Of a DNA stretch of 61,496 bases, positions 5,090-59,835 are shown piece after piece (within the stretch, counting starts at the first letter, position 1; each line of letters opens with the position of its first letter). Below the pieces are notes generated by a model that had not been told where the DNA came from, made no database searches, and was given only the letters and a program-made list of their open reading frames with translations. The DNA lies in assembly GCA_902770245.1 (NCBI GenBank), contig CACXSS010000030.1, forward strand, positions 1 through 61,496. The letters are read 5' to 3'. Both the position numbers and the translations under genes were made by a program. This stretch comes from an uncultured Planctomycetota bacterium (GTDB taxonomy: Bacteria; Planctomycetota; Planctomycetia; Pirellulales; Thermoguttaceae).

Positions 5090-5274
5090 TTTGTGTTATA
5101 ACAATAATAATGTGTATGCAAAAACCCGATCATATTCGAGCTTATAATCTCCACTAGTTTACTATTATAACACGTTTTTCAAAAAATGAACAACCTAGAT
5201 AAAATTTTTTGAAAATTTTTAAAATAAGGGCAGAAAAAGAGCAAAGAATTTTGACAGGTTCTCTTATTGAAAAA

Positions 5275-5308
5275 CTATTCCCTATACCCTACTCCCTATT
5301 CCCTAAGG
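5275..5308. repeat. Heptamer array (CTATTCC/CTACTCC) x5, directly abutting the stop codon of the 5310 gene
   Basis: The sequence reads ctattcc ctatacc ctactcc ctattcc ctaagg. Confidence 0.9.
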
Positions 5309-5309
5309 T

Positions 5310-6149
5310 CTAATTCCCAAAACCCTTTAGAACTCTCAGGGCTTCTCGACCTGCGCTGTCGGGATCGTCTACGTAGGGATAGAGTTCAACAGTAACCCAG
5401 CCTTTGTAGCCGGATTTTTCGATAGCGTCCAGAATGGGCGGGAAGTCGATAACTCCTTCTCCGGGAACGAGATGATGATGGACTCGCTGTTCGTTGATGT
5501 CCTCTATATGATAATGGCGCGTATGCTCTTTGAGCGGTTCGATCCAGTCGACGGGGTTCTGTCCGACGCAGAAGGCGTGCCCAATATCGAAGTTCAGACC
5601 CAGGCGGGGGCTGTCGATGCGGTCGGCGAATTCCAGGTACTGTTCAAACTTCTCGATTAGCAGCTGCGGTTCCGGTTCGATCAGCAGGTCAACGCCGACT
5701 TCTTCCGCGACTTCAATGCAGGGCATGATTTCCTCATAGAAGACGTCGTAAGCCTCCTGACGGGTCATGCCGTCTGGAATCGGACCGCCGGGATTGGTTT
5801 GAATGTTCTTCGCGCCCAGCTGCGCCGCCAATCGCAGACATCGCTTTGTATGCTCTCGACGAATAGCGCGATAGTCGGCAGACGGCTCAATCCAGGACGG
5901 GTGCCAGTACGGCTGGCGCGGGTCGGCAACGGCGTTCATCATGAAGGCGTTGACGTTGGAAATGGCAAGCCGACATCGTTCCAGGACGTCGCGGATATGC
6001 TCAATCTGAACCGGCAGCAGCCCGGCAGGCCACGCGTGCGGGACGTCCGCCAGAAGTTCAATGGCGTGATAACCCAGTCGGGAAACCTTCAAAGCGGTCT
6101 GTTCAATCGTATAATTTCGGTAGGCGTTTGTACTGTAGGCGAATTTCAT
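5310..6149 (-). CDS. Sugar phosphate isomerase/epimerase (xylose isomerase-like TIM barrel)
   Basis: The ORF 5310..6173 was trimmed to the second ATG (MKFAYSTNAY) because the first 8 codons are encoded by a TAGGCAG-type heptamer array. The layout IELLADVPHAWP, LIEPEPQ, NFDIGH, HYHIED is typical of the family. Confidence 0.75.
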   Translation of the reverse strand: MKFAYSTNAYRNYTIEQTALKVSRLGYHAIELLADVPHAWPAGLLPVQIEHIRDVLERCRLAISNVNAFMMNAVADPRQPYWHPSWIEPSADYRAIRREHTKRCLRLAAQLGAKNIQTNPGGPIPDGMTRQEAYDVFYEEIMPCIEVAEEVGVDLLIEPEPQLLIEKFEQYLEFADRIDSPRLGLNFDIGHAFCVGQNPVDWIEPLKEHTRHYHIEDINEQRVHHHLVPGEGVIDFPPILDAIEKSGYKGWVTVELYPYVDDPDSAGREALRVLKGFGN

Positions 6150-6154
6150 AGGGA

Positions 6155-6183
6155 GGCAATAGGCAGTAGGCAATAGGCAGTAG
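6155..6183. repeat. Heptamer array (GGCAATA/GGCAGTA) x4
   Basis: ggcaataggcagtaggcaataggcagtag lies immediately upstream of the ATG at 6149 (minus strand). Confidence 0.9.
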
Positions 6184-6352
6184 TTTTATGACGCGACAGC
6201 GTTCTGCTAGAACCGCGTCAGCTATTAGCTTGTATTATACAATCTCTTTTTTGAGTTGAAAGAGGGGGCATTTTTTAGTGAGTATTAATAAATTTCTATA
6301 TAATCCGTAATTTTTTCATCTTGACTAAAATTCTTACCTGAGTAAAATATAT

Positions 6353-6462
6353 AGGGAATAGGGGGCAGGGAATAGGGAATAGTAATTCGCCGATGGCGAA
6401 TTTAATACTACTCCCTACTCCCTATTCCCCATTCCCTAAACCACTCCCTATTCCCTACACCC
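6353..6462. repeat. Composite palindromic element: (GGGAATA)n, then the core hairpin AATTCGCC-GAT-GGCGAATT, then (TACTCCC/TATTCCC)n
   Basis: The left and right arrays are reverse complements of each other. The core hairpin spans 6384-6402. The whole ~110 nt can fold as one long hairpin, and it ends 13 nt before the ATG at 6476. Confidence 0.9.
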
Positions 6463-6475
6463 CCATTACGCATCC

Positions 6476-6913
6476 ATGCCACGTAAACGGATATTCCTTC
6501 GTCGCGCTACGATTTTGCACGCAGGCAGTTTGTTCCTGATGCTGATTGTATTTATATTCCTGTCAGTTCATCTAGCAAACCGAAGTCTGGAAGAACTCGT
6601 GCCGTCGGGCGGTCAGGCGACGACAACGCAAAACGGGGAATCGGTTTCAAAAGAACTCAACGCGGCGCAGGCGATGCAAATCGCGAAGATTATCGACTCC
6701 GCGCCGTACGAGAATTTACAGAACAAAACCGAGCTGGCGAAAATTGAACTGAAATACGTCAAAGCGGCTCACGATACGTTTACAATTACCCCCAGCGGCG
6801 TTATCAGCCGCCGCGGCTGGTACAATCAGAAAAAGCTCGACGCCGAGCAAGTTGAGCAGATTATTCAAATCGCGTTCCCGAAAACAGAAGAGGCAGTAGG
6901 CAATAGGCAGTAG
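6476..6913 (+). CDS. Hypothetical membrane-anchored protein with one N-terminal TM helix
   Basis: ORF of 145 aa with the hydrophobic stretch LHAGSLFLMLIVFIFLSV. The last ~7 codons and the TAG stop are supplied by a TAGGCAG heptamer array. Confidence 0.5.
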   Translation: MPRKRIFLRRATILHAGSLFLMLIVFIFLSVHLANRSLEELVPSGGQATTTQNGESVSKELNAAQAMQIAKIIDSAPYENLQNKTELAKIELKYVKAAHDTFTITPSGVISRRGWYNQKKLDAEQVEQIIQIAFPKTEEAVGNRQ

Positions 6914-6984
6914 GCAGCAGTGATTCGCCTGACGGCGAATTCAAATTTCAACTCCTCACTCCTCACTCCTCACTCCTAACTCAC
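6890..6984. repeat. Composite element: (TAGGCAG/A)n, then the core hairpin ATTCGCC-TGAC-GGCGAAT, then (ACTCCTC)n
   Basis: It has the same architecture as 6353-6462 and 13908-13993, but the two arms carry different heptamers. Confidence 0.9.
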
Positions 6985-7018
6985 AACCACTCTTTATTAC
7001 TAACACCTAAATATCACA

Positions 7019-10000
7019 ATGTCCGATTTGCCTTCTAACAATCGAATTAGCCGTTGGGTTCAAAATTTGTTGGACTTGACGCTTCGCAACCGTCTTCTTA
7101 ACCTCAAAGACGCGTCGTTTACCATGGAGCTGATCTGTTCAGACGCGGCGGATATAGAAGACCGTCTCGTTTCGGGATCGCTGCCGTTGAAAAACTTCAA
7201 GGAGAGCGAATACGACCCCCGTCAATATCGCTCTGCTAAAACCGATCCGGATTCCGGCGAGGTTTTAGAGGACGAGTCCGCGGAATCCGCTTCCGGACAG
7301 AAGGCGAAAAAGCTCCCGTCGACGGCGCTGTTTGTCAACCAGACGAAAAAGGAAACGGAAAGGCGTTTGCTCAAGCTGTATCGTCAAACAAAAACCGACA
7401 TCAGCGAGGGCGGCGTCAACACGCTCTTTTTGACAATCGGAACGCTGCATTGGCGTGACAAATCCCGAACGGAAAAAGAGTACCTGGCTCCGATTATTCT
7501 TTTGCCGGTCGAACTGATTCGCAATTCCGTCAAGGCGGAATTCCGCGTTCAGCGCACAGACGAGGATCCGTTCGTCAACCCGACGCTGTTGGAAGCGCTC
7601 CGCCGCGATTTCCAGCTGAAAATCACAGACCTGTCTGAACAGGTAGTCGAAGAGAAAGAGGACATCAACGTCAAAACGCTTTTGGACTCGTTTACCGAAC
7701 AGATTTCCTCCATGACGGGCTGGAAGGTCGAGCCGACCTGCTGGCTGGGTCGGTTCTCGTTTGACAAGTTTATCATGTACACGGATTTGAACAACCGCTG
7801 GAAGGAACTGGCGGCGAATCCGGTTGTCAAACAGCTTATCAACCTGACGGACGAACAGGTTCAGGAAGGGGTGGAAGCCAGTCAGGAAGGGACTATCGGC
7901 GTTGAAGTCGAGCAGAGCAACGCGTTCAACGAGCCGCCTGCCGACACCCCGCTGCCGATTGCGGATTATCTCAATTTGTTCCTGCCGATTGCCGCTGACG
8001 CGTCACAGCGTTCTGCCGTTATTGAGTCAACCAAAGGGCGCAGCTTTGTTCTCTACGGCCCTCCGGGAACGGGGAAATCGCAAACGATTACCAACTTAAT
8101 CGCCTATAACCTGGCGATGGGCAAAAAGGTTCTGTTCGTTTCCGAAAAGCGAGCGGCTTTGGAAGTCGTGTACAATCGTCTTTCCAAAATTGGGCTGGGA
8201 CCGTACTGTCTGGAACTTCACTCCAACAAGGCGGTAAAGAGAAAGGTTCTCGACCAGTTCCAGGAAGTCTACGAAATGGGCAAGAAGAACGACGTCAACG
8301 CCGAATGGACCAGAACGTGTTCAGAACTGACCGAGGCGGAACAGACGCTCGACAACTATGTCCGGCAGATTCACAAGCCGATTGTTGGAAACATCTCAGC
8401 GTACGACTGCTTCGGCTGGCTGGCGTCGCATGGGTACAGCTGGACGACCCGGCTTCCGCGTCTTTACGACGGCGCGATTGAAGAGCAGGAACTGCCGGAT
8501 TTGATTAACTCGGCGGAAGAGCTGCAGTCGCACGCCGCGGAAATGGATCCCGCTATGCTCAAAGCGCTCTCGCCGCTGAAACGGTTCAAGTGGAATCCGG
8601 AACTGGAATCCCAGATGATAGAAAGCGCATCAGCGTTTCGCCCGGCGGTTGAAGCGGTAAACCAGGTCTATAAACAGGCGGAAGAGGTCTTGTCGCTGCC
8701 GGATATCAAAGACGCGTCCGCCAAGATCACGCTGGCGTCACAGATTTTGGAGTTCCTTCAGGACTCCGGCCCGCTGCCGTCCAATCTGCTTTCCGAGGCA
8801 TTTGGAAAATTCATGCCGCTGGTTGACATGTTTGTCGAACAAGCCAGACAGTATAAAGACGCTCTTGAAGCGCTGAAGCTGTTTGACCTCAATCGGGTTC
8901 TCAATCTTCGCGTCGTTCAGCTTAAAGATCATATTGAGTACGTTAAAAAATCGTTCTTTATGTTCCGGTTTTTGAAGAAACGGAGCGTTGTCAATGAATA
9001 CGCCAGCCTCGTTCCGCCGTCTAACGGCAAACTGACGTTTGACATGCTGGAAGCGGCAGCGCCGAAAATCGCTGCGCTGCAGGAATCGTACAAACTCCTG
9101 TCGGAACATGGGGACGAAATCCTTGCCGCCGTCGGCGATTGGAACGGCGAATCCGCCAACCTGGAAGAGCTGCTTCCGTCCGTTCAGCGTGGAAAAGTTC
9201 TTCGAGAGATACTGTCCGTTGACTGCTTGACCGCCGCCGACCGCAAGCGGCTGTTCGATTTCGTCTGCGAGCAGACCGCCAATCCGAACGCAAACTTCGC
9301 CGCTTTGAATGCAGAATTCCAGTCTGCGGTTAAAGAGTACCGCATGGCAATGGAAACGTTCAACGAATCCGTTCCCACTCGCACAATGACGCCCATTGAA
9401 GCGATGGCTCTTATTGACGCTCTGCCGCAAGCCGGGCGCTCGCTGCGTCAGTTCTCGTTCTGGACGGACGTCCGAAACGACGCCAGAAGAATGCACCTCG
9501 GACCGTTGGCAAAAGCGATTGAACAGGGCAAAATCGATATTACCAAACAGTCTGCGGCAGAAGCCATGGAAGCGTCTTATCGATGGCAGCTGATTTACAA
9601 AGAGCTGGAATTCAACGACGCGTTGAACCGTTTTGACGGCGTAAGCCAAAACCGCTGCGTTGAACGTTTCTGCTCATTGGACGACAGTTTCTCGAAGCTG
9701 TCGATTCGCAAAATTCTTCTTGCTCTTTCGACGGAAGCCACCCGCGCCGTTTCGGAATCGACCACAACAGGTTCCGCTCTCCGAACGGAAGGCGACTTGC
9801 TGCGCCGGGAAATGAACAAGAAGATGCGCTTCCTGCCGATTCGTTCTCTGCTGGAACGCGCCCCGAATTTGACGCGCCGACTCAAGCCGTGTTTTCTCAT
9901 GTCGCCGCTGTCGGTTGCCCAATATCTGCCGACCAACGACGCCGGCTTTGACCTGGTCGTCTTCGACGAGGCGTCACAAATTCCAACGTGGGACGCTGTC

Positions 10001-11257
10001 GGCGTTATCGCCCGAGCGAAAAACGCGATTATCGTTGGCGACCCCAAACAGCTGCCGCCAACCGCCTTCTTCCAGCGTCAGGACGCTGTTACAGAGGAAA
10101 TAACGGAACAGTCCGAGGACGAAGTCGAAGACATGGAAAGCATTCTCGACGAGTGCATCGCCATCGGCATGGACGGCATGAAGCTCAACACCCACTACAG
10201 AAGCAAGAACGAGTCCCTCATCGCCTTTAGCAACCATTACTATTATCAGGATGAACTGGACACGTTCCCGGCGCCCGACAGGAATTTAGACAGTAGGCAA
10301 GAGGCAGTAGGCAGTAGTGAAGATTCTCGCAACTCGCAACTCGCAACTCGCAACTTTACTGGCGTTCACTTTGAATACGTACCCAACGCGGTTTACGACA
10401 AGAGCAAAACGCGAACCAACAAAGCGGAAGCGCAGCGCGTTGTCGAGATTGTTCTCGACCGCTTGAGCAATCCTAAAACGTCGGCGCGGTCGATGGGCGT
10501 TGTTGCGTTTTCCGCTCAGCAGAAAGACCTCATTGAAGACATGCTCGATCAGGCGGCGGACAGCAATCCGGAACTGGCAAACGCGATGTCTGAAGCGATG
10601 GCGGAACCGCTATTCGTGAAGAACCTGGAAAACGTTCAAGGCGACGAGCGCGACTGCATTATTTTCAGCATCGGATACGCGCCAGACGCCAGCGGGGCGT
10701 TCGCCATGAACTTCGGCCCGCTCAATAAGAGCGGCGGTCAGCGGCGTCTGAACGTTGCCGTTACCCGCGCCAAGGAAGAGATTATCGTTGTATCGTCCAT
10801 TTATGCGTCACAAATTGATTTGAACCGCACCAGCGCCGTCGGTCCGGCACATCTGAAAGCATACCTGGAATTCGCCCAGTCCGGTCGCCCAACCTGGGCA
10901 GACGCCTCCAGCGCCGGTTCGGATTCCTCCGCAGACAAAAACCGCTTTATCCAGTGCGTTGCCGATTTCCTCCGGGAAAATGGCTACGATGTAGACTGCG
11001 GCGTCGGCTTTTCAGACTACAAGATCGACATTGCCGTTGTCGACCCGAAGAATCCCAATCGCTATTGTCTGGCTGTCGAATGCGACGGCGCAGTTTACAA
11101 GAACGCGAAGATCGCTCGCGATCGAGAAAAATCTCGACCCTCCATGCTGGAAGGACTTGGCTGGAAACATTGCCGCGTCTGGTCTACGGAATGGTTTACC
11201 GATCCCGAAAAATCCAAAAACGATTTGCTAAAATGCCTTAAAGGATCGGGGAAATAG
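7019..11257 (+). CDS. DUF4011-type SF1 (Upf1/DNA2-like) helicase fused to a C-terminal Vsr/DUF559-like restriction-endonuclease-fold domain. The architecture is Hhe-like.
   Basis: 1412-aa ORF. Motifs: Walker A VLYGPPGTGKSQT, LVVFDEASQI, IIVGDPKQLPPT, VQGDERDCIIFS, RRLNVAVTRAKEEIIVV. The C-terminus reads DYKIDIAVVDP..CLAVECDGAVYKNAKIARDREKSRPSMLEGLGWKHCRVWSTEWF. Confidence 0.8.
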   Translation: MSDLPSNNRISRWVQNLLDLTLRNRLLNLKDASFTMELICSDAADIEDRLVSGSLPLKNFKESEYDPRQYRSAKTDPDSGEVLEDESAESASGQKAKKLPSTALFVNQTKKETERRLLKLYRQTKTDISEGGVNTLFLTIGTLHWRDKSRTEKEYLAPIILLPVELIRNSVKAEFRVQRTDEDPFVNPTLLEALRRDFQLKITDLSEQVVEEKEDINVKTLLDSFTEQISSMTGWKVEPTCWLGRFSFDKFIMYTDLNNRWKELAANPVVKQLINLTDEQVQEGVEASQEGTIGVEVEQSNAFNEPPADTPLPIADYLNLFLPIAADASQRSAVIESTKGRSFVLYGPPGTGKSQTITNLIAYNLAMGKKVLFVSEKRAALEVVYNRLSKIGLGPYCLELHSNKAVKRKVLDQFQEVYEMGKKNDVNAEWTRTCSELTEAEQTLDNYVRQIHKPIVGNISAYDCFGWLASHGYSWTTRLPRLYDGAIEEQELPDLINSAEELQSHAAEMDPAMLKALSPLKRFKWNPELESQMIESASAFRPAVEAVNQVYKQAEEVLSLPDIKDASAKITLASQILEFLQDSGPLPSNLLSEAFGKFMPLVDMFVEQARQYKDALEALKLFDLNRVLNLRVVQLKDHIEYVKKSFFMFRFLKKRSVVNEYASLVPPSNGKLTFDMLEAAAPKIAALQESYKLLSEHGDEILAAVGDWNGESANLEELLPSVQRGKVLREILSVDCLTAADRKRLFDFVCEQTANPNANFAALNAEFQSAVKEYRMAMETFNESVPTRTMTPIEAMALIDALPQAGRSLRQFSFWTDVRNDARRMHLGPLAKAIEQGKIDITKQSAAEAMEASYRWQLIYKELEFNDALNRFDGVSQNRCVERFCSLDDSFSKLSIRKILLALSTEATRAVSESTTTGSALRTEGDLLRREMNKKMRFLPIRSLLERAPNLTRRLKPCFLMSPLSVAQYLPTNDAGFDLVVFDEASQIPTWDAVGVIARAKNAIIVGDPKQLPPTAFFQRQDAVTEEITEQSEDEVEDMESILDECIAIGMDGMKLNTHYRSKNESLIAFSNHYYYQDELDTFPAPDRNLDSRQEAVGSSEDSRNSQLATRNFTGVHFEYVPNAVYDKSKTRTNKAEAQRVVEIVLDRLSNPKTSARSMGVVAFSAQQKDLIEDMLDQAADSNPELANAMSEAMAEPLFVKNLENVQGDERDCIIFSIGYAPDASGAFAMNFGPLNKSGGQRRLNVAVTRAKEEIIVVSSIYASQIDLNRTSAVGPAHLKAYLEFAQSGRPTWADASSAGSDSSADKNRFIQCVADFLRENGYDVDCGVGFSDYKIDIAVVDPKNPNRYCLAVECDGAVYKNAKIARDREKSRPSMLEGLGWKHCRVWSTEWFTDPEKSKNDLLKCLKGSGK
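10289..10355. repeat. Repeat element inside the helicase CDS: (TAGGCAG-type) x3, then gtgaagatt, then (CTCGCAA) x4
   Basis: It encodes ..[23 protein letters not shown].. in-frame. A near-identical copy is intergenic at 19436-19522. Confidence 0.85.
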
Positions 11258-11267
11258 CTATTAGTCT

Positions 11268-11326
11268 TTAGCCGCCAGCTGTTAGCTTCTGGTTCAAAAA
11301 ACTGGCAGCTAATAGTTGGCGGCTGT
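11268..11326. repeat. Imperfect inverted repeat of the AGCTAAT/AGCCGCC type downstream of the helicase gene; possible terminator
   Basis: ttagccgccagctgttagc and gctaatagttggcggctgtaa flank a 21-nt spacer. Related words occur at 6218-6232, 27339-27474 and 43695-43730. Confidence 0.6.
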
Positions 11327-11345
11327 AAACATTCAAAAGAAATCC

Positions 11346-11777
11346 ATGAACAAATACGACAAAGCGATTGACGATCTCAGTCATTTTATGATACGTCAAA
11401 GCATGTATTTGCTCAGCGGAGCCTCTGACGGAACTGTCGTTCAATCTGGAAACTTCTGGCAGATTGTATCCTTCATAACAGGATACGACACTGCCGCCGA
11501 AGTATTAAAAGGTCATTTTGAACGATGGATTGTTCTCAATACAGATATCAAAAGCTATTTCAATTATGCATTTCCAATACAGATTGTTGTATTGGTAAAC
11601 TCGCGTCTGTCTTCATCTAATACGATTAAAGAGAACCAATATCTTTCCCAATACGACGATGAGTATATTGAGCTGTTGTTTGATTTACTGCTGAGATTTC
11701 TTAACGACGTCAAACAGAATCCGGAAGAACGTCTTGCGGAACTTGACATCAGATTTAATAAGCGCGTACTTGAATAA
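11346..11777 (+). CDS. Hypothetical protein, AT-richer than its neighbours
   Basis: The ORF 11316..11777 was trimmed to the first ATG (MNKYDKAIDD). I recognised no motif. Confidence 0.45.
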   Translation: MNKYDKAIDDLSHFMIRQSMYLLSGASDGTVVQSGNFWQIVSFITGYDTAAEVLKGHFERWIVLNTDIKSYFNYAFPIQIVVLVNSRLSSSNTIKENQYLSQYDDEYIELLFDLLLRFLNDVKQNPEERLAELDIRFNKRVLE

Positions 11778-11782
11778 AAAAA

Positions 11783-11819
11783 CAGCCAGCTTCTGGCTCA
11801 AAAAGCTGAAAGCTGGCTG
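11783..11819. terminator. Bidirectional hairpin between convergent genes
   Basis: cagccagctt and aagctggctg form a 10-bp stem preceded by an A-run and followed by tgatt. The hairpin sits between the stops at 11777 (+) and 11838 (-). Confidence 0.55.
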
Positions 11820-11837
11820 ATTATAGTTAAAGGTAAA

Positions 11838-12998
11838 TTAGAACTTCGTCGTATCGAAGTTATAGGCGTCTTCCCGGTTGCCCAGAGCCGTGTAAATGAG
11901 CGGGTCGATATTAAAGGAGATTTCTCTCGTGGAGCCGTCGCACATGCAGACGTTAAATCCGACTCGGTGCGCGCTGCCCATGGCGTAACGGAATTTGCTC
12001 TTTTCGCTGTCGTTTAAGCGTTTATCCTGATACGGCAGGTATTCGTTCGGGTTCGTTCCGATTGCCATGGCTCCTTTAATGGCGGACATGTTCGTCCAGG
12101 ATTTAACGCCGTTCGTTCCGGTTTGGGGTTCGAATTTCAATCCTGTTCCAACAATTCTCACGTTCGAGCAGGAAATCCCGGTATACATGCAAACGTCTTC
12201 GCCGTTTTCGCAGCCGCCCTGATAGTTGTCTTTGTCGAGAAACTTTTCGCTGAGCAAAATTGTAGACGTCATACCGTCTCGGACGTAGTCAGACGACACT
12301 TCGCTGCCGGCGTAACAAATTCCAAACGACCGCCACTGAACCTGTTTGAAGTTTTTTGTCCAGGTTGCGTTAGAACCTTCAATATAATTTTGGGGATAGC
12401 CAGAGCCAGTAGTATCGAGATTCCAGTAACACTCTGTTGTATTTCCCCCGTTAGCGGCATAGTCGCACTTGGCAACCATCGAGGCGATGGTAATAGTTCT
12501 TTGTCCTGTATCTCCGCCATAAAGAACCGACTGGCTGGAACGCAATGGGTATGTTTGCGAACGTCGCCGCGTTGGGCAGTTACAAACTTTTAACGGGGAT
12601 TCTACCAGGTCTTTGACGCTTTTTTGAGCGTTGTTGTCATCGTAGGCGGCAGAGTTGTTCGCCAAATGGTTGTAGTTGAACAGACGTTCCTGATCCAGGT
12701 ACGGTAAAATCGAGTACAACCATCCGCCCGGTTGAGTGCGTCCAAAACCGTAGTCCGGATAACCAACCCATTTCGGTCCCCAGCCGCCGGAAGGAAAATA
12801 TTTCTGACGTTCCAGATGGGCGCTGCTGGCGGCTCCCATTTGGCGGAGATTGTTTTTACACTGCATGTTTCGGGCGGCTTCACGAGCGCTGTTGACAGCA
12901 GGAAGAAGAAGCCCAATCAAGGTTGAAATAATTGCAATGACAACCAAAAGCTCTACGAGCGTAAAAGCGCGAATATCGCGTTTAGAGTTATGTTTCAT
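11838..12998 (-). CDS. DUF1559 domain protein with a prepilin-type N-terminal cleavage/methylation motif
   Basis: The N-terminus [44 protein letters not shown] is the signature of Planctomycetes DUF1559 pseudopilin-like proteins. Confidence 0.85.
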
Positions 12999-13020: not shown

Positions 13021-13078
13021 AATTAGCAATTAGCAATTTTCAATTAGCAATGAGAGCTTCAATAAGAACTCATTGCTA
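13021..13078. repeat. (AATTAGC)n array ending in a 10-bp-stem hairpin, in the 5' leader of the DUF1559 gene
   Basis: The array reads aattagcaattagcaattttcaattagcaatgag. The hairpin pairs tagcaatgag (13045-13054) with ctcattgcta (13069-13078). Confidence 0.85.
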
Positions 13079-13202: not shown

Positions 13203-13235
13203 CCTACTGTCTATTGCCTACTGCCTACTGCCTAA
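13203..13235. repeat. Heptamer array (CCTACTG/CCTATTG) x4 abutting and overlapping the lpxB stop codon
   Basis: The sequence reads cctactgtctattgcctactgcctactgcctaa. Confidence 0.9.
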
Positions 13236-15760: not shown

Positions 15761-15762
15761 GG

Positions 15763-15811
15763 CAATTAGTAATGAGTAATGAGTAATGAGTAATTGACGC
15801 AAAGCGCCTCA
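15763..15811. repeat. Leader element: (TAATGAG)n array plus the conserved box TTGACGCAAAGCGCCTCA, abutting the SelA-like start codon
   Basis: The same box-plus-array occurs at 59759-59812 (guaA leader), 15942-15997 (tsaD leader, mirrored) and 58150-58195. Confidence 0.85.
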
Positions 15812-15941: not shown

Positions 15942-15997
15942 GAGAGAATCGCCTTGCGCCAATTACTAATTACTAATCACTAATTACTAATTCCCTA
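15942..15997. repeat. Leader element: conserved box GAATCGCCTTGCGCCAATTAC plus a (TAATTAC)n array running into the tsaD ATG
   Basis: The sequence reads aattactaattactaatcactaattactaattccctaATG. It is a mirror image of 15763-15811 across the divergent intergenic region. Confidence 0.85.
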
Positions 15998-17527: not shown

Positions 17528-17573
17528 AATTTAATAGGATTGATGGTGAAACTCGGATTGTTATTGAGTTAGA

Positions 17574-17678
17574 AATGAGGAGTGATGAGTGAGGAGCGAG
17601 GACGAATCAAAGCGACCAACGGGAGCGGTTGTTGGCAGACGCGCGGTAGCGCGGACTGGGAGCGGCGCCTCGCCGCTG
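17574..17678. repeat. (GAGGAGT)n array plus mosaic element E2 (CAAAGCGACCAACGGGAGCGG...CGGACTGGGAGCGGCGCCTCGCCGCT)
   Basis: E2 recurs at 30456-30614 with an 88-nt larger middle, and inverted at 57152-57190. Confidence 0.85.
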
Positions 17679-19439
17679 CAGCGTAATTTTGATAAAAACT
17701 GGCAGATTCCTTTACACGATTCCGGCAAAGTTGAGCGGATGTCAAGACAGCTTAACATCCCAGTCGCTCTGGCTCAGCTGTTGTGCGCTCGAAAAATGAC
17801 GCCCGAACAGGGGCGCCGCTATCTGGCGTCGTCTTTTTCTGAGGTCGAACCGCCAACAGCGCTTTATGGCTGCGAAAAGGCGGCGGAACTGATTCTTCAA
17901 GGAATTGACAACAACGAATCGTTCGTTATTTACGGCGACTACGACGTTGACGGGATGTCCGCAACGGTTGTTCTGTATAGAATTATCACCGCCTTGGGCG
18001 GGAAAGTTAACTACTATATTCCCAGCCGACACGACGACGGATACGGTCTGCACAATCATACTGTTGAGAACCTGGCTCAACAGGGATACAACTGGCTCGT
18101 TACCGTAGACTGCGGCATTCGATCTGTGGAAGAAGTCGAGTTGGCAAACCGTTTGGGTCTGAAAACGATTGTAACTGACCATCACCAGCCCCTGGAATCC
18201 GGGGAATTGCCCCCTGCTCTGGCGGTCGTTCATCCGGCGATCCCTCTCAACGGCAAATGCACGCCGGAATTGAGCGGGTCGGCGGTCGCGTTCAAACTGG
18301 CGTGGCAGTTATGCTGTGCGAAAATGAAAAGCTCAAACGTTGGGGAGAGGCTTCGTAACATTCTTCTGGAACTGCTGGGCATAGCGACGCTGGGAATCGT
18401 GGCGGACGTTGTGCCTCTGACTGGAGACAACCGAATTCTTACCGCGAACGGTTTGAAATATTTGCGGAATCGCGCCCCGATTGGCATTTTGGCTCTTTTG
18501 CAGGGATTGAGTCTTCATGAGCAGATTTTAAGCGCCGAGAACATCTCCTATAAAATCGCCCCAACGCTCAACGCCGCCGGACGGGTCGGCGATCCCAACA
18601 AGGCGGTGGAATTGCTCTTGTCGATTCAGCAGCCAAAAGCGCAAAGCCTTGTATCCCAGTTGCTTGAATGGAATTTTAAACGGAAAACTCTGGAACAGGA
18701 GATTTCTCGTCAGGCGGAAGAACTGGTCAAGGAACAATTTCAGTCAGAGGACGATAATCCGTTTCTGGTTTTAGCGGGACAGGACTGGCACGAGGGCGTT
18801 CTGGGAATTGTCGCTTCCAGAATGGTCGAAAAATTTCATCGTCCAACGATTATCCTTTCCATTCCAAATTCTGACGATTCGGAAAAGCCCTGCTCCGGCT
18901 CCGCCCGATCTGTAGAAGACTTTGACGTCGCCGCTGCGCTGGCGCATTGTTCAGACATTCTGACGCGTCATGGCGGTCACAAAATGGCGGCGGGGCTGTC
19001 TGTCAAGAAAAACGATATCAACGCCTTTCGTCAAAAAATCAACGAGTACGCAAAAGAACATAAAGCAGAATTGAACACAGACGCCCCGGAGTACGTTGAC
19101 GCTGAAATACCGCTCTCTGCGATTACAATGGAAACGCTGCTGGCAATGGAATGGATGGAGCCGTTTGGCAAAGAGAACCCGCGCCCAACGTTCATGGCAA
19201 CCAACGTCGGGCTTTACTGCGCTCCGCGGCTGTTAAACAGCTCCGGCGGAGTTCAGTTTGTGTTTTATCAGAATGGCGTAACACTCAACGGCGTTGCGTT
19301 TCAACACCCGTCTTGGGCAAGCGATTTCGTCAATACAGGCAGTCAGGCGTTTGACATCGTCTTTCAGCCCAGTATCAACCGCTTTGCCGGTCGAACCAGC
19401 GTTCAGCTTAAAGTGCTCGACTGGCAAAGCAGAGATTAG
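17589..19439 (+). CDS. recJ: Single-stranded-DNA-specific exonuclease RecJ (exact start uncertain)
   Basis: DHH/DHHA1 features are YGDYDVDGMSA, VTVDCG, IVTDHH and GGHKMAAG. The first ~30 codons of the listed ORF are repeat-encoded. The first ATG is at 17739 (MSRQLNIP), but KNWQIPL upstream looks RecJ-like. Confidence 0.85.
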   Translation: MRSEDESKRPTGAVVGRRAVARTGSGASPLQRNFDKNWQIPLHDSGKVERMSRQLNIPVALAQLLCARKMTPEQGRRYLASSFSEVEPPTALYGCEKAAELILQGIDNNESFVIYGDYDVDGMSATVVLYRIITALGGKVNYYIPSRHDDGYGLHNHTVENLAQQGYNWLVTVDCGIRSVEEVELANRLGLKTIVTDHHQPLESGELPPALAVVHPAIPLNGKCTPELSGSAVAFKLAWQLCCAKMKSSNVGERLRNILLELLGIATLGIVADVVPLTGDNRILTANGLKYLRNRAPIGILALLQGLSLHEQILSAENISYKIAPTLNAAGRVGDPNKAVELLLSIQQPKAQSLVSQLLEWNFKRKTLEQEISRQAEELVKEQFQSEDDNPFLVLAGQDWHEGVLGIVASRMVEKFHRPTIILSIPNSDDSEKPCSGSARSVEDFDVAAALAHCSDILTRHGGHKMAAGLSVKKNDINAFRQKINEYAKEHKAELNTDAPEYVDAEIPLSAITMETLLAMEWMEPFGKENPRPTFMATNVGLYCAPRLLNSSGGVQFVFYQNGVTLNGVAFQHPSWASDFVNTGSQAFDIVFQPSINRFAGRTSVQLKVLDWQSRD

Positions 19440-19522
19440 GCAGCAGGCAAGAGGCAGTAGGCAGTAGTGAAGATTTTTTGTTTCTCGCAACTCGCAACTC
19501 GCAACTCGCCTCTCGCAACTCA
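19436..19522. repeat. Element (TAGGCAG-type)n, then gtgaagatt(ttttgttt), then (CTCGCAA)n, exactly filling the recJ/dhaK convergent gap
   Basis: It is the twin of the intragenic copy at 10289-10355. The recJ TAG stop is part of the first heptamer. Confidence 0.9.
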
Positions 19523-27321: not shown

Positions 27322-27338
27322 GGTTTTGGGGTAAATTG

Positions 27339-27474
27339 GTTAGGGGGTTAGGGGATGAAGCTCCTAGCTGCTAGCTCTTAGCCAGGAGCTTGTGCATTTG
27401 AAGTTCTCGGCGTTAATTTTAAAGCCTGAAACTAAAATCGCCAAGCTAGGATCTAGAAGCTAATAGCTAGCGGC
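27339..27474. repeat. AGCTAGC/AGCTAAT-type repeat region with the hairpin aagctcct...aggagctt
   Basis: The sequence reads gctcctagctgctagctcttagccaggagc ... ccaagctaggatctagaagctaatagctagcggct. It lies between the start of the 26533 gene and the stop of the 27467 gene. Confidence 0.7.
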
Positions 27475-30412: not shown

Positions 30413-30420
30413 GGTTATTA

Positions 30421-30692
30421 GTTGCAAGTTACGAGTTGCGAGTTGCGAGAAAATGCAAGCGACCAACGGGAGTGGTTATCGGCAGGCGCGCGGGTGCGAA
30501 GCCGCACAGGCGGAGGGAACTGCGTTTTGTGATGAAAATTTTGTTTATGGCGCTACCCATGTCCAATCAGGAACCGACCTTGTCGGCGCGGACTGGGAGC
30601 GGCGCCTCGCCGCTAGGAGTTAGGGGTGAGGAGTTATTTTTGAGCCGCCGCTTGCGTAACTCCTCACTCCTCACTTCTCACTCCTCACTCGC
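30421..30692. repeat. Composite repeat block: (GTTGCGA)n array, long E2 copy, then inverted (GAGGAGT)/(ACTCCTC) arrays
   Basis: The array is at 30421-30449, E2 at 30456-30614, and the inverted repeat at 30615-30636 and 30657-30692. Confidence 0.85.
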
Positions 30693-43964: not shown

Positions 43965-46325
43965 TTATCCAACGTAGAGCTTTAAACGAGGGCTGTCTGA
44001 TATGCCTTCATCTTCTTCTGTATCAGGTTGTGTAACAGCGGCGGACGCTTCAGCGGCAATTAACGCAAATCGTCGGGCGGAATCCATGTTGTCGAAGCGC
44101 CCTTGAACCAGACGGCGAAGCGAGGACGCCTGGTCGTCCGGTTGCGAGTCGTCAGACGAGACTTTTGTTTCGTCTTTATAAGATTCATCTGCGTTGTTTC
44201 TCGTCTCGACGCTTGCCAGCAGTGCGTTGATTTGCTCTTGAGTGAATCGGCTTTCCCAGTCAGACAGAGCCTTGAGCGGGAAATAGTTTCGATAATAATG
44301 ATATCGCAGATAAAAGACCAGCGGAAATCCGGTTCCGGTGAATTCCGGTTCCGACCATTGCCCGTCCGAATTCTGACGGTCAATGAGATAACGGATTCCG
44401 TTTACAACTGATTCAGAGGCGCCTTCTCCGCTGGCGATAAGCCCCAGAAGCGCCCAGGCGGTTTGCGACGCCGTCGAATTTCCGGTTCCTTTGAGCAACG
44501 GGTTGCGATAGCTGTCGAGCGTCTCGCCCCAGCCGCCGTCTGAATGTTGATGGGCTTTGAGCCAGTTGACGCCTGCCGCGACCATCGGGTCTTTCGGGTC
44601 AACGCCGACCGCCGCCAAGCCGTTGAGCGCCTCGCCGGTTCCGTAAATGTAGTTCGCTCCCCAGCGACCAAACCAGGAACCGTCCGGCAGCTGTTCTTTA
44701 CGACAGAACTCCACTGCGCGGTCAATCTGAGTTGCGAGTTGCGAGTTGCGAGTTGCATCTTCCCGACATGAACAGCGATATCCTAACGCTCCCAACGCTT
44801 CCAGAATTCGCCCGGTGATGTCGGTCGTGCTGGGGTCAATCATGGCGTTGTGATCGGCAAACGGGACATGACAAAGGAACTGACGGTTGTTGTTTTTGTC
44901 GAACGACGCCCAGCCGCCGTCTTTGTTCTGCATTCCCATCAGCCACGTTACGCAGCGGTCAATAGCGGCTTGCAGATTTTCCGGCGACGTGAGATTGTCA
45001 GAATTGGCTTTGCCTTCGATGGCAGAGCCGGTTTGGGTTGCCGTTCTCAAAACGTCGCTCAATTCGTGTATTGCCATAATCGACATGGCGGAATCGTCGC
45101 AGTCAGGATAGAAATCGTTGTGGTATTCAAAAGCCCAGCCGCCCGGCGGCGTTTTCGGATTGACCTGCGCCCAGTCGCCTTTCCATGTATGCTGTCTGGG
45201 CAAGAGCCATTCCAACGCCTTGCGAACGGACTGAGAAGCCGGAGAATCCCCTTCGATTCTAATTCCGCCCGCCGCTAATGCGCGAAGCGTCAAAACGGTG
45301 TCCCAAACGGGAGATAAACACGGAACGCCGTGAGCGGACGGGTTCCCGTTGGCGTCAATCCCGTCGTCGACGATGAGTTTATGGAATTCGTTGAGAAAAT
45401 ACTGGACTTCCGGCGTGTCGTCGGCGTATCCTTGCGCTTTCATGGCGACCAGCCCCCAAATAATGGGCGGCTGAATTGCGCCGGGACCGTCGCTGTTTTT
45501 GCAATGTTCCAGCAGCCAATCGTTCATCTTCTTAATCGCCCGTTTGCGAATAAATCCTTTTCCAAACCAGCGCTGATATTTTTTCAAAAAGACGTCTGTT
45601 CCGCGGAAGAACCGCTCCCAGGAGAAGAACCCCGGAGCTTTTTGAATCTGCCCCGGTTTGACAACTTTCGGAGCAGACAGCGGGGGCCACTGTTCCGGCG
45701 CGTTGTGAAACAGTTCCCGAATTCCCTTTTCAATGGGCAGAGGTCGAACCGGACGCAAAGCCGAGACAATCGCCAGCGGCGCAATAATCGTTCTCGTCCA
45801 GGAACTGACGGCGTACATGTTAATCGGAAACCATTTAGGAAGAAGAATCAACTCCGGCGGCACGGCTGGGCATTGTTCATACGGAACCTGTCCCAGAATA
45901 GCCAGATAAAACCGGGTAAAGCTGTTGACGTTATCGGCGCCGCCCATTCTCATAACAGCTTCCCGCGCCCGCTGCATGTACGGCGCATTGAGCGGATGGC
46001 CTGTCAGCTTGAGCGCGAAATACGCTTTGACCGTGTTGGTAATCGAATCTTCTCCGCCGGTAAACATGGGCCATCCGCCGGTTTCAGATTGCGTCAAGAG
46101 GAGATGATTCGCCAGCTTCTTTGCCAGAGGGGAGTCTTCCTGCCCTAAAAACGTGAGAAGAATTACGGCTTCGCCTTCCAGCAGCGCGTCGCCTTCCAGC
46201 TCCGCTCTCCAATGTCCGTCTTCGTTTTGATGAGAAAAAAAGAAATCCTGACAGCGGCGAATCGCTTCATGCAGTTCCACCGCAGACGGCATGGCAACCG
46301 GTTTCAATTCGAATGTTTCGTTCAT
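43965..46325 (-). CDS. shc: Squalene-hopene cyclase with a ~110-aa acidic/Ser-rich C-terminal extension
   Basis: The ORF was trimmed to MNETFELKP. QW-type repeats are present (DGHWRAE, GGWPMF, DGGWASF, DGSWFGRWG, DGGWGE, DGQWSE), along with a DCDDSAM (DxDD-like) motif. A (GTTGCGA) array insertion is also present. Confidence 0.85.
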   Translation of the reverse strand: MNETFELKPVAMPSAVELHEAIRRCQDFFFSHQNEDGHWRAELEGDALLEGEAVILLTFLGQEDSPLAKKLANHLLLTQSETGGWPMFTGGEDSITNTVKAYFALKLTGHPLNAPYMQRAREAVMRMGGADNVNSFTRFYLAILGQVPYEQCPAVPPELILLPKWFPINMYAVSSWTRTIIAPLAIVSALRPVRPLPIEKGIRELFHNAPEQWPPLSAPKVVKPGQIQKAPGFFSWERFFRGTDVFLKKYQRWFGKGFIRKRAIKKMNDWLLEHCKNSDGPGAIQPPIIWGLVAMKAQGYADDTPEVQYFLNEFHKLIVDDGIDANGNPSAHGVPCLSPVWDTVLTLRALAAGGIRIEGDSPASQSVRKALEWLLPRQHTWKGDWAQVNPKTPPGGWAFEYHNDFYPDCDDSAMSIMAIHELSDVLRTATQTGSAIEGKANSDNLTSPENLQAAIDRCVTWLMGMQNKDGGWASFDKNNNRQFLCHVPFADHNAMIDPSTTDITGRILEALGALGYRCSCREDATRNSQLATQIDRAVEFCRKEQLPDGSWFGRWGANYIYGTGEALNGLAAVGVDPKDPMVAAGVNWLKAHQHSDGGWGETLDSYRNPLLKGTGNSTASQTAWALLGLIASGEGASESVVNGIRYLIDRQNSDGQWSEPEFTGTGFPLVFYLRYHYYRNYFPLKALSDWESRFTQEQINALLASVETRNNADESYKDETKVSSDDSQPDDQASSLRRLVQGRFDNMDSARRFALIAAEASAAVTQPDTEEDEGISDSPRLKLYVG
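44729..44757. repeat. (GAGTTGC) x4 heptamer array inside the shc CDS
   Basis: It is translated on the minus strand as ..[11 protein letters not shown].. Confidence 0.9.
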
Positions 46326-53836: not shown

Positions 53837-54796
53837 TTAATGATTCCTTTCCAAAACGTAGTCTGCCAGATTCCGCAGCAGTTCCGCGTCCTGACCAAAA
53901 GAACTCAGCGCGTCTTTCGCCTTTTGAGTCAGTTCCGCCGCATACGCCTGTGACGCCTCAACGCCCAGAAGCCCCGGATACGTCATTTTCCCCTTGGCGC
54001 TGTCTTTATGAGTGCGCTTTCCCATCTGCTCGTCCGTCGCGGTAACGTCGAGTAAATCGTCCGTAACCTGGAACAGCAGCCCAAGGGCGGCGCCGTACGC
54101 TTTGAGGCTTTCAATCTGTTCAGCAGTCGCATTTGCGATGGTCGCGCCGATAATCAGCGAAACGCGAATCATCGCCCCGGTTTTAAGGCGATGAATGTTC
54201 TCTAAGATCGATAACGCTTCTGCGTCAGTTTGTGAGTTGCGAGTTGCGAGTTGCGAGTTGCGAGTTGAGGAACTCGCTTCGCTCGTCTGATTCTCTTTTT
54301 CTCCTTGAATGTCCAGCGTCTGACCGGCGACCATGCCGCAGGCTCCTGCGGCGTCTGACAAGGCGGAAACGCATTGAATTGCAGCCTCTGCCGGGTGAAC
54401 GTCTTTTGCCAAAACCTCAAACGCCAGAGCCTGCAAAGCGTCAGCGGCAAGAATAGCGGTCGCTTCGTCGAACTGCTTATGGCACGTTGGACGTCCGCGG
54501 CGCAAATCGTCGTCGTCCATGGCAGGCAAGTCGTCGTGAATGAGCGAATAGGCGTGAATCATCTCGACAGCGCACGCGCCGGGCAGAGCTTTGGTCATCT
54601 CGCCGCCGCACGCCTGACACGCCAAAAGAGCTAACATCGGGCGAATGCGTTTGCCGGGGGCGAGAAGGGAATAGTCCATCGCCTGACGGAGCAAATCCGG
54701 ACATCGTTCGTCCAGCTTGAGATACTCTCTAAGCTGCGAATTGACCAGTTCGACGTTCGTCTTAAAAAAATCGGTTAGCACTGAGTTTTGGGACAT
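53837..54796 (-). CDS. ispA: Polyprenyl diphosphate synthase (farnesyl/geranylgeranyl diphosphate synthase)
   Basis: Matches are [17 protein letters not shown] (first DDxxD), FQVTDDLLD (second) and KTGAMI. It directly abuts the dxs start. A heptamer-array insertion is present. Confidence 0.85.
54232..54277. repeat. (GAGTTGC) x5 heptamer array plus a short hairpin inside the ispA CDS
   Basis: It is translated as ..[16 protein letters not shown].. The hairpin gcgagtt-gagg-aactcgc sits at the 3' side. Confidence 0.9.
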
Positions 54797-59758: not shown

Positions 59759-59835
59759 GATTTTTAATTAGTAATTAGTAATGAGTAATTAGTAATTGAC
59801 GCAAAGCGTCTCACTCTTGTAATTGCTAATTATAC
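59759..59835. repeat. guaA leader: (TAATTAG/TAATGAG)n array plus the conserved box TTGACGCAAAGCGTCTCA
   Basis: The sequence reads atttttaattagtaattagtaatgagtaattagtaattgacgcaaagcgtctcac. Confidence 0.85.

Follow-up and report, generated by a model that had tools for sequence, protein, structure and literature searches.

What are the tandem heptanucleotide arrays that recur along a contig of an uncultured Thermoguttaceae bacterium (phylum Planctomycetota; GenBank assembly GCA_902770245.1, contig CACXSS010000030.1, positions 1 to 61,496, the whole of which is here called the window), and why do they keep to the boundaries of genes? A first-pass annotation made from the sequence alone had drawn attention to them around positions 6150–6990 and elsewhere along the contig. 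We find that the arrays are heptanucleotide simple-sequence-repeat modules of the same kind as the short tandemly repeated repetitive (STRR) sequences of cyanobacteria and the G-rich heptamers of Xanthomonas and Nostoc. They are known in kind already and new for the phylum Planctomycetota; the literature searched holds no description of such arrays in this phylum, which is an absence from that literature rather than proof. The modules survive only in configurations compatible with gene expression, and we posit, with moderate confidence, that they are generated by slippage and by block copying among dispersed modules and are filtered by selection for expression compatibility. In many bacteria, long simple repeats are most often built from units of seven nucleotides. 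Because many unit types here obey one set of rules in one genome, explanations tied to a particular sequence, such as G-quadruplex formation, become separable from structural or mechanistic ones.

Census, period and length of the arrays

The window contains about 28 arrays of period 7, and 30 of the 49 Tandem Repeats Finder rows for the window have this period. Copy numbers range from 3.4 to 8.1, most of them lying at 4.0–4.7. Every array located by the first-pass annotation was recovered by this program except the one at 30615, whose three imperfect units (TAGGAGTTAGGGGTGAGGAGT) are visible in the sequence and fall below the threshold. The program also reported further partner arrays at 6408, 6951, 10326, 13962, 19484, 26496, 30659 and 58159, and a weak array at 27359. 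A strict scan for self-identity at a fixed offset, with 50 first-order Markov simulations as the null, bore out the excess of period 7, finding 17 such arrays in the window where 0.0 were expected, and none in the window of period 6 or of periods 8–12. The arrays are accordingly longer and commoner than chance or than repeats of other unit lengths, as is characteristic of long heptanucleotide simple repeats.

Array length is quantised. A tally over the window and loci L003–L008, L083 and L086–L090 of its relatives shows a sharp peak at 30–33 nt (4.3–4.7 units) for any unit sequence, confirming a four-unit mode. One module is a small hairpin with an arm of about 31 nt (about 4.4 heptamer units) on one or both sides, and many arrays build composites in which a G-rich arm, a small hairpin and a C-rich arm follow one another. 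The four-unit mode persists in units that lack a G3 tract (window, 14 of 21; close relatives, 48 of 85), with lengths peaking at 30–32 nt, and this four-unit preference in units unable to form G-quadruplexes is new. A search of Rfam at gathering thresholds returned one tRNA only, with no match to the arrays, their cores or the dispersed D6 elements described below.

Unit types and hairpin cores

Written in one register, the G-rich units are GAGTAGG, GAATAGG, CAGTAGG, CAATAGG, GAGTGAG, GAGTTAG, GAGTTGC, TAGTAAT, GAGTAAT and TAGCAAT, which are linked by one- and two-base steps. Their mean distance is 2.62, against 3.04 ± 0.10 for letter-shuffled units, and 0.1% of shuffles reach 2.62. The seven families distinguished earlier therefore stand as several unit types but not as independent ones, and we read them as probable mutational derivatives homogenised within each array. 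A universal sequence motif was considered and rejected: an NAGT register is common to this clade and is missing from many units of distant Pirellulales.

The single architecture proposed for the different unit types, in which an array, a short core and a second array are built around an ATTCGCC-N3-4-GGCGAAT hairpin, was recovered here. More specifically, this core occurs at 6385, 6923 and 13943 with different arms each time (GGGAATA/CTACTCC, AGGCAGT/ACTCCTC and GAGTGAG/CTATTCC, respectively), and in general a core is either an ATTCGCC-N4-GGCGAAT hairpin or a mini-hairpin with a triloop, as in CGC-AAA-GCG. Folding is strong in composites whose arms are complementary (z −5 to −7) and weak or absent where the arms are unlike (z −2.5 to +0.6), and many arrays adjoin no hairpin.

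The hairpin TTCGCC-N4-GGCGAA is present in six copies in the window and also in L003, L004, L007 and L087. It belongs as well to a palindromic element that as a doublet measures about 150 nt and resembles REPINs (doublets of repetitive extragenic palindromic, or REP, sequences forming hairpins) and MITEs (miniature inverted-repeat transposable elements). Halves of this element lie at 57301–57398, 59894–59991 and 60047–60144 in the window, and inverted full doublets at 5706–5862 in L003 and about 17230–17400 in L087. The L087 doublet fills the spacer orthologous to 6914–7018, with hairpin and loop identical to those of the window's copy at 6924, while the L003 doublet occupies the recJ/dhaK spacer, where it is bordered by one remaining unit of each of the two arms present in the window. 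Many related units around common hairpin cores, one of these hairpins being found also in a REPIN-like element, is a new combination.

Placement, orientation and polarity

By a curated gene map only 14.7% of the window is non-coding, yet 22 of its 28 arrays fall beyond coding sequence or across a stop codon, so that the siting at gene boundaries noted earlier is upheld; the other six are within coding sequences, at four sites. Orientation is equally regular. Seven arrays end 3–13 nt 5' of an ATG, all seven being C-rich and G-poor in the mRNA sense, and eight begin at a stop codon, overlap it or come at most 27 nt after it, all eight being G-rich in sense. At 6911, 13232, 19437 and 26452 the TAG of an array unit doubles as the stop of the gene. 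The start rule holds 7:1 in independent loci and the stop rule 11:2 for arrays lying after stops in viral contigs, where only arrays beginning after the stop codon were counted because stop-containing arrays end any open reading frame (ORF) that runs into them.

Where arrays are paired, the G-rich one comes first and the C-rich one second whichever strand is read, in 60 pairs against 0, although some loci may be redundant and hence not all pairs are independent events. This count comprises 21:0 for the window taken together with 12 close and 74 distant loci, and 39:0 in 55 viral-contig loci found with TAGGCAG x3. The suggestion that different heptamers serve interchangeably as left or right arms is thus contradicted, since a family always shows its G-rich strand when it forms the 5' arm and its C-rich strand when it forms the 3' arm. 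The start rule and the stop rule are one geometric rule, G-rich then C-rich. Convergent plus/minus pairs that form inverted repeats are also present, with strong folds where the arms match. That this polarity is absolute across unit types, including one without stop codons, is new.

The leaders into which start-side arms fall are themselves poor in G. The 20 nt 5' of 32 start codons contain 11.6% G, with a Shine-Dalgarno-like motif in only 4 of the 32, and because the leaders of this genome are generally G-poor a start-side arm merely fits the local norm.

Coding logic and in-frame insertions

The first-pass annotation had argued that, as 7 = 1 mod 3, an array is read alike in all three frames of a strand. 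The argument is correct and has already been published for TAACTGA (PMC4679880). Each G-rich orientation except GAGTTGC holds TAG or TGA and hence a stop in all three frames, while the C-rich orientations are mostly open, the exceptions being CTAATTA, GCTAATT and CTAACTC, each with a TAA. Neither strand of TAATTAG or of AATTAGC is open, and these two were seen solely between genes, again in agreement with the annotation.

Four genes contain arrays, namely those for a ProA-like helicase, LpxB, squalene-hopene cyclase and polyprenyl synthase. Their arrays are either open or altered at the would-be stop, as the annotation had noted: GAG in the helicase array and CAG in the LpxB array stand exactly at the would-be in-frame TAG, and the cyclase and polyprenyl synthase arrays are open and of the CTCGCAA type. 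As seven is not divisible by three, arrays persist within genes only at certain lengths and in variants free of stops. All four arrays are insertions relative to homologues. The interdomain linker of LpxB measures 7–15 residues in distant homologues and about 21–58 in the close clade, whose linkers hold differing array-encoded sequences, and every length difference at the lpxB site is a multiple of 3. The cyclase loop ATRNSQLAT is missing from the solved structure 1gsz, as are residues 170–194 of the polyprenyl synthase (a 25-residue insertion) from the solved structure 7my6. In proteins 85–93% identical the same loops are empty, hold a single array or hold another composite. LpxB, squalene-hopene cyclase, polyprenyl synthase and a defence helicase thus carry arrays as rapidly changing in-frame peptides, and the presence of whole composites in frame in essential enzymes, with fast turnover, is new. 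A practical consequence of the arrays is that gene callers extend ORFs into repeats.

A kept stop codon was seen in one relative. The orthologous composite in the lpxB gene of the metagenome-assembled genome (MAG) contig JAZUMX010000663.1 (L004, 7696–7899) retains an in-frame TAG where the window has CAG, which could be a pseudogene, a sequencing error or read-through.

Turnover and block copying

A relative is represented by a 21-kb stretch of MAG GCA_017434505.1 and of a near-identical European Nucleotide Archive (ENA) contig (L083/L084), 95.4% identical to the window and fully syntenic with it. Over these 21 kb, 970 substitutions and 38 indel events separate L083 from the window, the indels lying mostly in or beside array regions. 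Comparison at orthologous sites, which the annotation had recommended, revealed differences in units, cassettes and presence. A single unit (7 nt) was gained or lost at 13208, 19452 and 19484. Cassettes were swapped for others with different arms and a different core, between conserved flanks, at 5242–5305, 6351–6462, 6922–7002, 13891–13960, 15762–15974 and 17533–17660, sites that include the right half of 6891–6982, lpxB, both arrays flanking the selA–tsaD spacer and the recJ leader. Only L083 has the nested composite, about 130 nt long, at 23341, where the window has a core remnant and a decayed arm, and indels of 17–19 nt that contain exactly the hairpin also part the two. Conserved arrays include that at 6154–6183 and the composite within the helicase gene. 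At almost all sites, then, genomes that are 95% identical in DNA have exchanged, gained or lost modules.

Within the strain the arrays are stable. Same-strain contigs assembled independently from two other samples match the window at 100% identity across 14 of the arrays, and no differences in array copy number were found among them. Phase-variable contingency loci were considered and rejected, because the arrays of same-strain contigs are identical; the adjacent genes are housekeeping genes.

Whole modules recur within the window and beyond it. Positions 10286–10325 and 19436–19475 are 95% identical with the same order of unit variants, and this module is found also in lpxB of L005 and L006. 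Positions 6352–6405 and 13939–13992 are 93% complementary, with CAG for TAG in both, and this second module occurs also in the squalene-hopene cyclase gene of L090, where the peptide GNREWGIGNSNSPEANLKTTPYSLLP comes from the same composite as in the window's LpxB. Common internal unit variants at unrelated sites indicate that modules are copied as blocks. Stop-avoiding variants occur in intergenic copies too, so they travel with the module and need not have arisen in place. The view that the arrays share a generating mechanism 'rather than one mobile sequence' was too strong in its second half, since whole modules recur at unrelated sites with the same variants. Growth in place is seen as well: the window's cyclase array has apparently grown out of one TCGCAAC unit, which is kept in other lineages. 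No target-site duplication or clean insertion boundary was found at the lpxB, cyclase and polyprenyl synthase sites or at 23341, where the flanking sequence either has diverged too far or was altered along with the element.

Host relatives and wider distribution

TsaD is 96–97% identical to that of Thermoguttaceae MAGs from goat, water buffalo and other gut samples, and the next tier, at about 60% identity, consists entirely of Pirellulales. The window encodes sulfatase-like enzymes and a prepilin with an H-X9-DG C-terminal motif (NCBIfam TIGR04294), a motif that we take to be typical of Planctomycetes and their relatives. Its genes are housekeeping genes, with lpxB, tsaD, recJ, guaA, cysS, DXS, squalene-hopene cyclase, polyprenyl synthase, a secretin gene and others among them.

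Period-7 arrays extend to distant relatives. In 1.1 Mb of distant Pirellulales loci there are 41 arrays of period 7, 0 of period 8 and 6 of period 9, and many of these loci hold period-7 arrays of other units with the same polarity, often directly 5' of tsaD. The spacer upstream of tsaD (locus positions about 9900–10000; loci L005–L007, L038, L042, L044, L049, L053, L060 and L071) contains an array in lineages about 60% TsaD-identical, with a different unit in each; the site is a hot spot for arrays or else selection retains an array there. The junction of a GGGAATA arm with its hairpin had no match in a metagenome scan of a collection from which, as protein hits suggest, this ruminant clade is missing.

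The arrays are also found on viral contigs. Among IMG/VR contigs, GAGTTGC x3 occurs in 7 stretches and TAGGCAG x3 in 55 (L102–L156), the latter mostly of 61–72% GC and commonly with plus/minus pairs. One of the contigs so found, L091 (IMGVR_UViG_3300014199_000362, 1–12789), encodes a terminase, a portal and a Mu-F-like head protein and carries ten arrays in 12.8 kb. These lie between genes and include CTCGCAA, AGTTAGG and AATTTCA, and most of those that can be judged by the nearest gene end follow the start and stop orientation rules. Arrays on a phage-like contig are new. Viral contig L128 resembles alphaproteobacterial prophage DNA (Shinella, Paracoccus), which indicates that the same heptamer is used well beyond planctomycetes.

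Relation to known heptamer and repeat systems

The annotation knew of heptamer arrays only as cyanobacterial STRRs. This was too narrow, as they have also been described in Xanthomonas, Burkholderia, Beggiatoaceae and Bacteroidetes (PMC4692102, PMC4679880). The closest parallel is the work of Rehm et al. 2015 on GGGAATC in Xanthomonas and GGGGA(C/T)T in Nostoc PCC 7120, which reported a clear four-unit mode and a strong non-coding bias, most repeats lying at most 50 bp from an ORF, with the G-rich strand being the non-coding one where they are upstream and the coding one where they are downstream (PMC4692102). Repeats there sometimes overlap the stop codon, convergent plus/minus pairs capable of forming stem-loops are frequent, and length and sequence vary extensively at conserved sites between close relatives; the four-unit mode was ascribed to G-quadruplex formation and no regulatory role was found (PMC4692102). 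The four-unit mode, the strand rule at ORF ends and the convergent pairs are shared by this planctomycete, and its GGGAATA is one base from the Xanthomonas unit. In contrast to Xanthomonas and Nostoc, at least seven related unit types stand here side by side, with separate hairpin cores and with in-frame composites in housekeeping genes, in a host of the Planctomycetota. Every Xanthomonas and Nostoc unit has a G3-4 tract, whereas here only the GGGAATA/GGGAGTA family does; as most units lack G3 tracts, the quadruplex rationale cannot be transferred. Mrazek et al. 2007 are cited, both there and by MacGregor 2015 (PMC4692102, PMC4679880), for heptanucleotide repeats being in general excess and for a mechanism in which slippage goes with a polymerase footprint.

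MacGregor 2015 described TAACTGA direct repeats in marine Beggiatoaceae, some cyanobacteria and Bacteroidetes, two to six units standing a few nucleotides 5' of starts in leaders without Shine-Dalgarno sites (PMC4679880). One orientation stops all three frames and sits at ORF ends over stop codons, the other is occasionally read through in ORFs, and S1, Csp and CsrA were proposed as binders (PMC4679880). Start-proximal arrays, Shine-Dalgarno-poor leaders and the all-frame stop logic are found here as well. The TAACTGA system differs in having a single dominant heptamer, related heptamers being rare, whereas the window has its seven or more unit types and no TAACTGA array. It differs also in that its stop-containing orientation faces the downstream gene, while the start-side arm here is the stop-free, G-poor strand, and in that no hairpin-cored composites, which are present here, were described there.

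Cyanobacterial STRR1, STRR2 and STRR3 were reportedly described by Mazel et al. 1990, with the units CCCCAGT, TTGGTCA and CAACAGT. The arrays resemble STRRs in forming several dispersed heptamer families, mostly intergenic and often with hairpin-forming inverted arrays, but no STRR consensus unit is among the Tandem Repeats Finder consensus units here, and the host is not a cyanobacterium but a ruminant-gut member of the Thermoguttaceae with a count of 0 for the cyanobacterial HIP1 octamer in the window. The small dispersed repeats of Nostoc (Elhai et al. 2008) are reported to be very small elements that insert in heptamer arrays; hairpin-size insertions and deletions within such arrays are seen here as well.

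The in-frame insertions recall other translated repeats. Rickettsia palindromic elements are translated repeats in conserved protein genes, and Borg tandem repeats provide a further precedent (PMC9879509). In all of these, in-frame repeats in conserved genes add short, low-complexity peptides to surface loops; here the element has another structure and size and its unit is not a multiple of three. REP/REPIN sequences and MITEs are likewise short intergenic hairpin repeats (PMC3116915), and the window's conserved hairpin, at many sites and in inverted doublets, is common to the composites and to a longer palindromic doublet as would be expected of such elements. The difference is that the arms here are tandem heptamers and not unique sequence.

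Origin and maintenance of the arrays

In the reading we favour, replication slippage would create new units, which would spread through an array, and arms and cores would be swapped among dispersed copies by recombination or gene conversion, or in some transposition step. Purifying selection would then yield the placement rules. The G-rich strand has all-frame TAG or TGA, often start codons, and Shine-Dalgarno-like purine motifs, so that it would be tolerated in sense only at or after stops; the C-rich strand, stop-free and G-poor, would suit G-poor leaders and be readable through coding loops. The arrays are probably expression-neutral or mildly useful spacers, acting as unstructured leaders, all-frame stops and gene-end hairpins, and are unlikely to be switches.

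Several points weigh against this account. Simple slippage predicts monotonically falling lengths, whereas a sharp peak at 30–33 nt was observed. Polarity holds also within genes and in GAGTTGC, which is stop-free on both strands, so that selection at gene boundaries alone is not the full explanation. Neither an enzyme nor a target-site duplication came to light, nor did any intermediate of recombination or transposition. The ten arrays of L091, placed under the same rules, fit a function or an active generator more readily than they fit filler that is tolerated. The account was also drawn from 61 kb of this genome and fragments of relatives. The 7-nt unit, the arm of about four units and the handedness are unexplained by anything tested here.

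It is possible, if on the whole unlikely, that the modules are instead functional expression elements, serving as untranslated-region or terminator modules. The C-rich start-side arm would be an unstructured landing site for Shine-Dalgarno-independent initiation, recognised by S1 or a cold-shock-type protein (about 7 nt footprint), much as the S1, Csp and CsrA proteins were proposed for TAACTGA repeats that, like the arrays here, end close to starts (PMC4679880). Most genes of the window lack an array, however, and the same modules lie within coding sequences, where action in an untranslated region is impossible. At the other gene end, a G-rich arm and hairpin past the stop would place all-frame stops ahead of a two-way terminator or stabiliser, the hairpin followed by a pyrimidine-rich RNA tract leaving a weak RNA:DNA hybrid. 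The strict polarity matches the handedness of a two-way A-tract/hairpin/T-tract terminator and complementary-arm composites fold strongly, but unlike-arm composites do not, and co-directional gene pairs leave no promoter room after such a terminator. An arm of about 31 nt would be a protein or ribosome footprint, which fits an arm length quantised regardless of unit sequence. The arrays kept 5' of tsaD with differing heptamers in lineages about 60% protein-identical, and the same rules in the phage structural-gene module of L091, would also be expected of functional elements, yet in close relatives arrays are swapped, lost (23341) or replaced by another repeat with no evident consequence, and Rehm et al. 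found no regulatory role for theirs (PMC4692102).

We consider it improbable that the composites are non-autonomous mobile elements of the MITE/REPIN kind, moved by a transposase encoded elsewhere and with the arrays as terminal or target sequences; in a variant of this idea, the mobile element may be very small and consist of just the core hairpin, inserting in heptamer arrays. Mobility would account for a core hairpin common to the palindromic element of about 150 nt, for the L087 doublet that carries the identical hairpin and loop at an orthologous spacer, and for hairpin-only indels between the window and L083, although a hairpin that differs between these two is always accompanied by a differing adjacent arm. 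It would likewise account for modules copied as blocks and for composites present or absent in the coding loops of close relatives, but the comparisons gave no clean pair of empty and filled sites, no target-site duplication and no defined terminus, and no transposase or reverse transcriptase is among the 38 window proteins scanned. Single-unit changes, growth from one resident unit at the cyclase site and the one-unit remnants in L003 point to growth in place, and many arrays have no hairpin beside them.

A more speculative idea, to which we would give only a slim chance, is that a dedicated, sequence-independent process sets the four-unit length and the purine-to-pyrimidine handedness for any unit, operates in planctomycete chromosomes and phages, and is the common cause of cyanobacterial STRRs, Xanthomonas GGGAATC and Beggiatoaceae TAACTGA. 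A candidate would be a protein or polymerase complex with a 7-nt register on single-stranded nucleic acid and a footprint of about 31 nt. The idea draws on the length peak and the polarity, which hold for non-quadruplex units and for the stop-free unit, and on similar G-rich units, GA-N-T-N-GG, that recur across phyla.

G-quadruplex formation, the reason offered for the four-unit preference in Xanthomonas and Nostoc, is very unlikely to be why the arrays exist. GGGAATA/GGGAGTA arrays do give six canonical G3-N-G3-N-G3-N-G3 motifs in the window and are one base off GGGAATC, and the account could apply to this family alone, but TAGGCAG, GAGTTGC, GAGGAGT, TAATTAG, AATTAGC and TAGTGTA have no G3 and show the same mode, placement and polarity; because G3-less units keep the four-unit mode, it fails as a general explanation. 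An assembly artefact, vector or contaminant can be dismissed, since assemblies from other samples are identical, orthologous arrays are found in MAGs from several studies, 6150–6990 had no BLAST match in plasmid or phage collections, and the surrounding genes are ordinary planctomycete housekeeping genes.

Array coordinates and neighbouring elements

The arrays and composites of the window are listed in Table 1.

Table 1. Heptanucleotide arrays and composites of the window; sense refers to the gene named in the row, and L083 is the relative 95.4% identical to the window.
Position	Strand	Feature	Setting	Remarks
5275..5305		CTATTCC-type array, 4.4 units	4 nt past stop of minus-strand isomerase gene 5310-6149	TAGGGAA.. 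(G-rich) in sense
6154..6183		AGGCAAT/AGGCAGT array, 4.3 units	4 nt 5' of ATG of minus-strand gene 5310-6149	CTACTGC.. (G-poor) in sense; identical in L083
6351..6462		Composite: GGGAATA x4.6, hairpin ATTCGCCGATGGCGAAT (6385-6401), CTACTCC/CTATTCC x8	End 13 nt 5' of ATG 6476	Complementary arms, long hairpin, fold −51.2 kcal/mol, z −7.2; other cassette in L083
6891..6982		Composite: AGGCAGT x3.9, hairpin ATTCGCCTGACGGCGAAT (6923-6940), ACTCCTC x4.6	First array is last 7 codons and TAG stop (6911-6913) of gene 6476-6913; end 36 nt 5' of ATG 7019	
10287..10355	+	Composite: TAGGCAG-type x4.4, core TGAAGATT, CTCGCAA x4.3	69 nt (23 codons), in frame in ProA-like antiphage helicase gene	GAG for in-frame TAG; conserved in L083; same module as 19437 (repeat family D1)
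13021..13051		AATTAGC array, 4.4 units	22 nt 5' of ATG of minus-strand prepilin gene	Both strands stop-bearing
13203..13234		CCTACTG array, 4.6 units	First TAG is LpxB stop	TAGGCAG.. in LpxB sense; one unit fewer in L083
13905..13992	-	Composite, in sense: GGGAATA-type x4.4, hairpin AATTCGCC-GGAG-GCGAATT, ACTCCTC x4.6	In frame in lpxB, linker between two domains	CAG for in-frame TAG
15764..15808		AATGAGT array x4.4, then mini-hairpin GACGCAAAGCGCC	3 nt 5' of ATG of minus-strand SelA-family gene	ATTACTC.. (G-poor) in sense; repeat family D11
15950..15992		Mini-hairpin CGCCTTGCG, then AATTACT array x4.6	End 5 nt 5' of tsaD ATG (15998)	Repeat family I3
17576..17602		TGAGGAG array x3.9	5' of or overlapping uncertain recJ start	C-rich array instead in L083; D6 element copy 17605-17659 follows
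19437..19521		Composite: TAGGCAG-type x4.4, core TGAAGATTTTTTGTTT, CTCGCAA x5.4	Between convergent recJ and dhaK; first TAG is recJ stop, far end 3 nt from dhaK stop	Both arms one unit shorter in L083; REPIN-like doublet instead in L003
26445..26526		Composite: TAGGGAG/TAGGGAA x6.4, AAAAAA, CTATTCC x4.4	Between convergent genes	Complementary arms; fold −42.8 kcal/mol, z −6.7
27359..27382		AGCTCCT array, weak, 3.4 units	Between two genes	
30420..30449		AGTTGCG array x4.3	7 nt 5' of ATG of minus-strand GH123 gene	CTCGCAA.. (G-poor) in sense; D6 element next
30614..30690		Composite: GGAGTTA/GGGGTGA x3 (imperfect), core with CGCTTGCG, ACTCCTC x4.6	3' of stop (30718) of minus-strand GFO/IDH/MocA gene, near end 27 nt off	Fold z −5.0
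44729..44756	-	GAGTTGC x4.0	Inside squalene-hopene cyclase gene	Sense GCAACTC, encodes ATRNSQLAT
54230..54267	-	TTGCGAG x5.4	Inside polyprenyl synthase gene	Sense CTCGCAA
58112..58193		Composite: TAGTGTA x3.6, core GGCGCTTGCGT, TAATTGC x5.0	Between guaA stop and xseB start (both genes minus strand)	No stable fold
59765..59810		TAATTAG array x4.7, then mini-hairpin GACGCAAAGCGTC	6 nt 5' of guaA ATG	AATTACT.. in sense; repeat family D11

Other dispersed repeats accompany the arrays. D6 is an element of about 50 nt, AAGCGACCAACGGGAGCGG...GGCAGACGCGCGG, at 17605–17659, 30452–30498 and 57139–57190 (minus strand), two copies of which directly adjoin heptamer arrays. The recJ start is doubtful because a GTG start at 17589 would translate the D6 copy at 17605. 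The gene-poor stretches 57032–57757 and 59826–60960 hold the repeat families D3, D10 and D17, and 8-mer repeats (ACGCGGAG) lie at 57278 and 60143. A 72-nt repeat at 43861–43932 and 57684–57755 consists of AAATCCGTN x3 (period 9) and the hairpin ATCCGTGAACGGAT; its copies stand just past the stops of the minus-strand squalene-hopene cyclase gene and of xseB, and it may be a terminator-like element.

Arrays and neighbouring repeats coincide with contig ends in ruminant-gut metagenome assemblies. The same-strain contig L098 departs from the window right after an inverted repeat at 60453–60527. At 14827–14828 the window lacks 110–111 nt of the SelA-family gene that are present in all relatives and in the same-strain contigs L001 and L002, otherwise 100% identical to the window. 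Both are ENA contigs whose first base is the point of divergence from the window, 9 nt ahead of the missing 110–111 nt, and the gap is hence either a population variant or an assembly join.

Two further observations concern single loci. At 32135–34736 two adjacent genes have a third-position GC of 0.30–0.36, against about 0.6 elsewhere, with no Pfam match and no heptamer arrays nearby, and may be acquired DNA. At 27338–27354 a telomere-like 8-mer, GGTTAGGG x2, which reads CCCTAACC x2 in the sense of a hydrolase gene, forms part of another G-poor leader.

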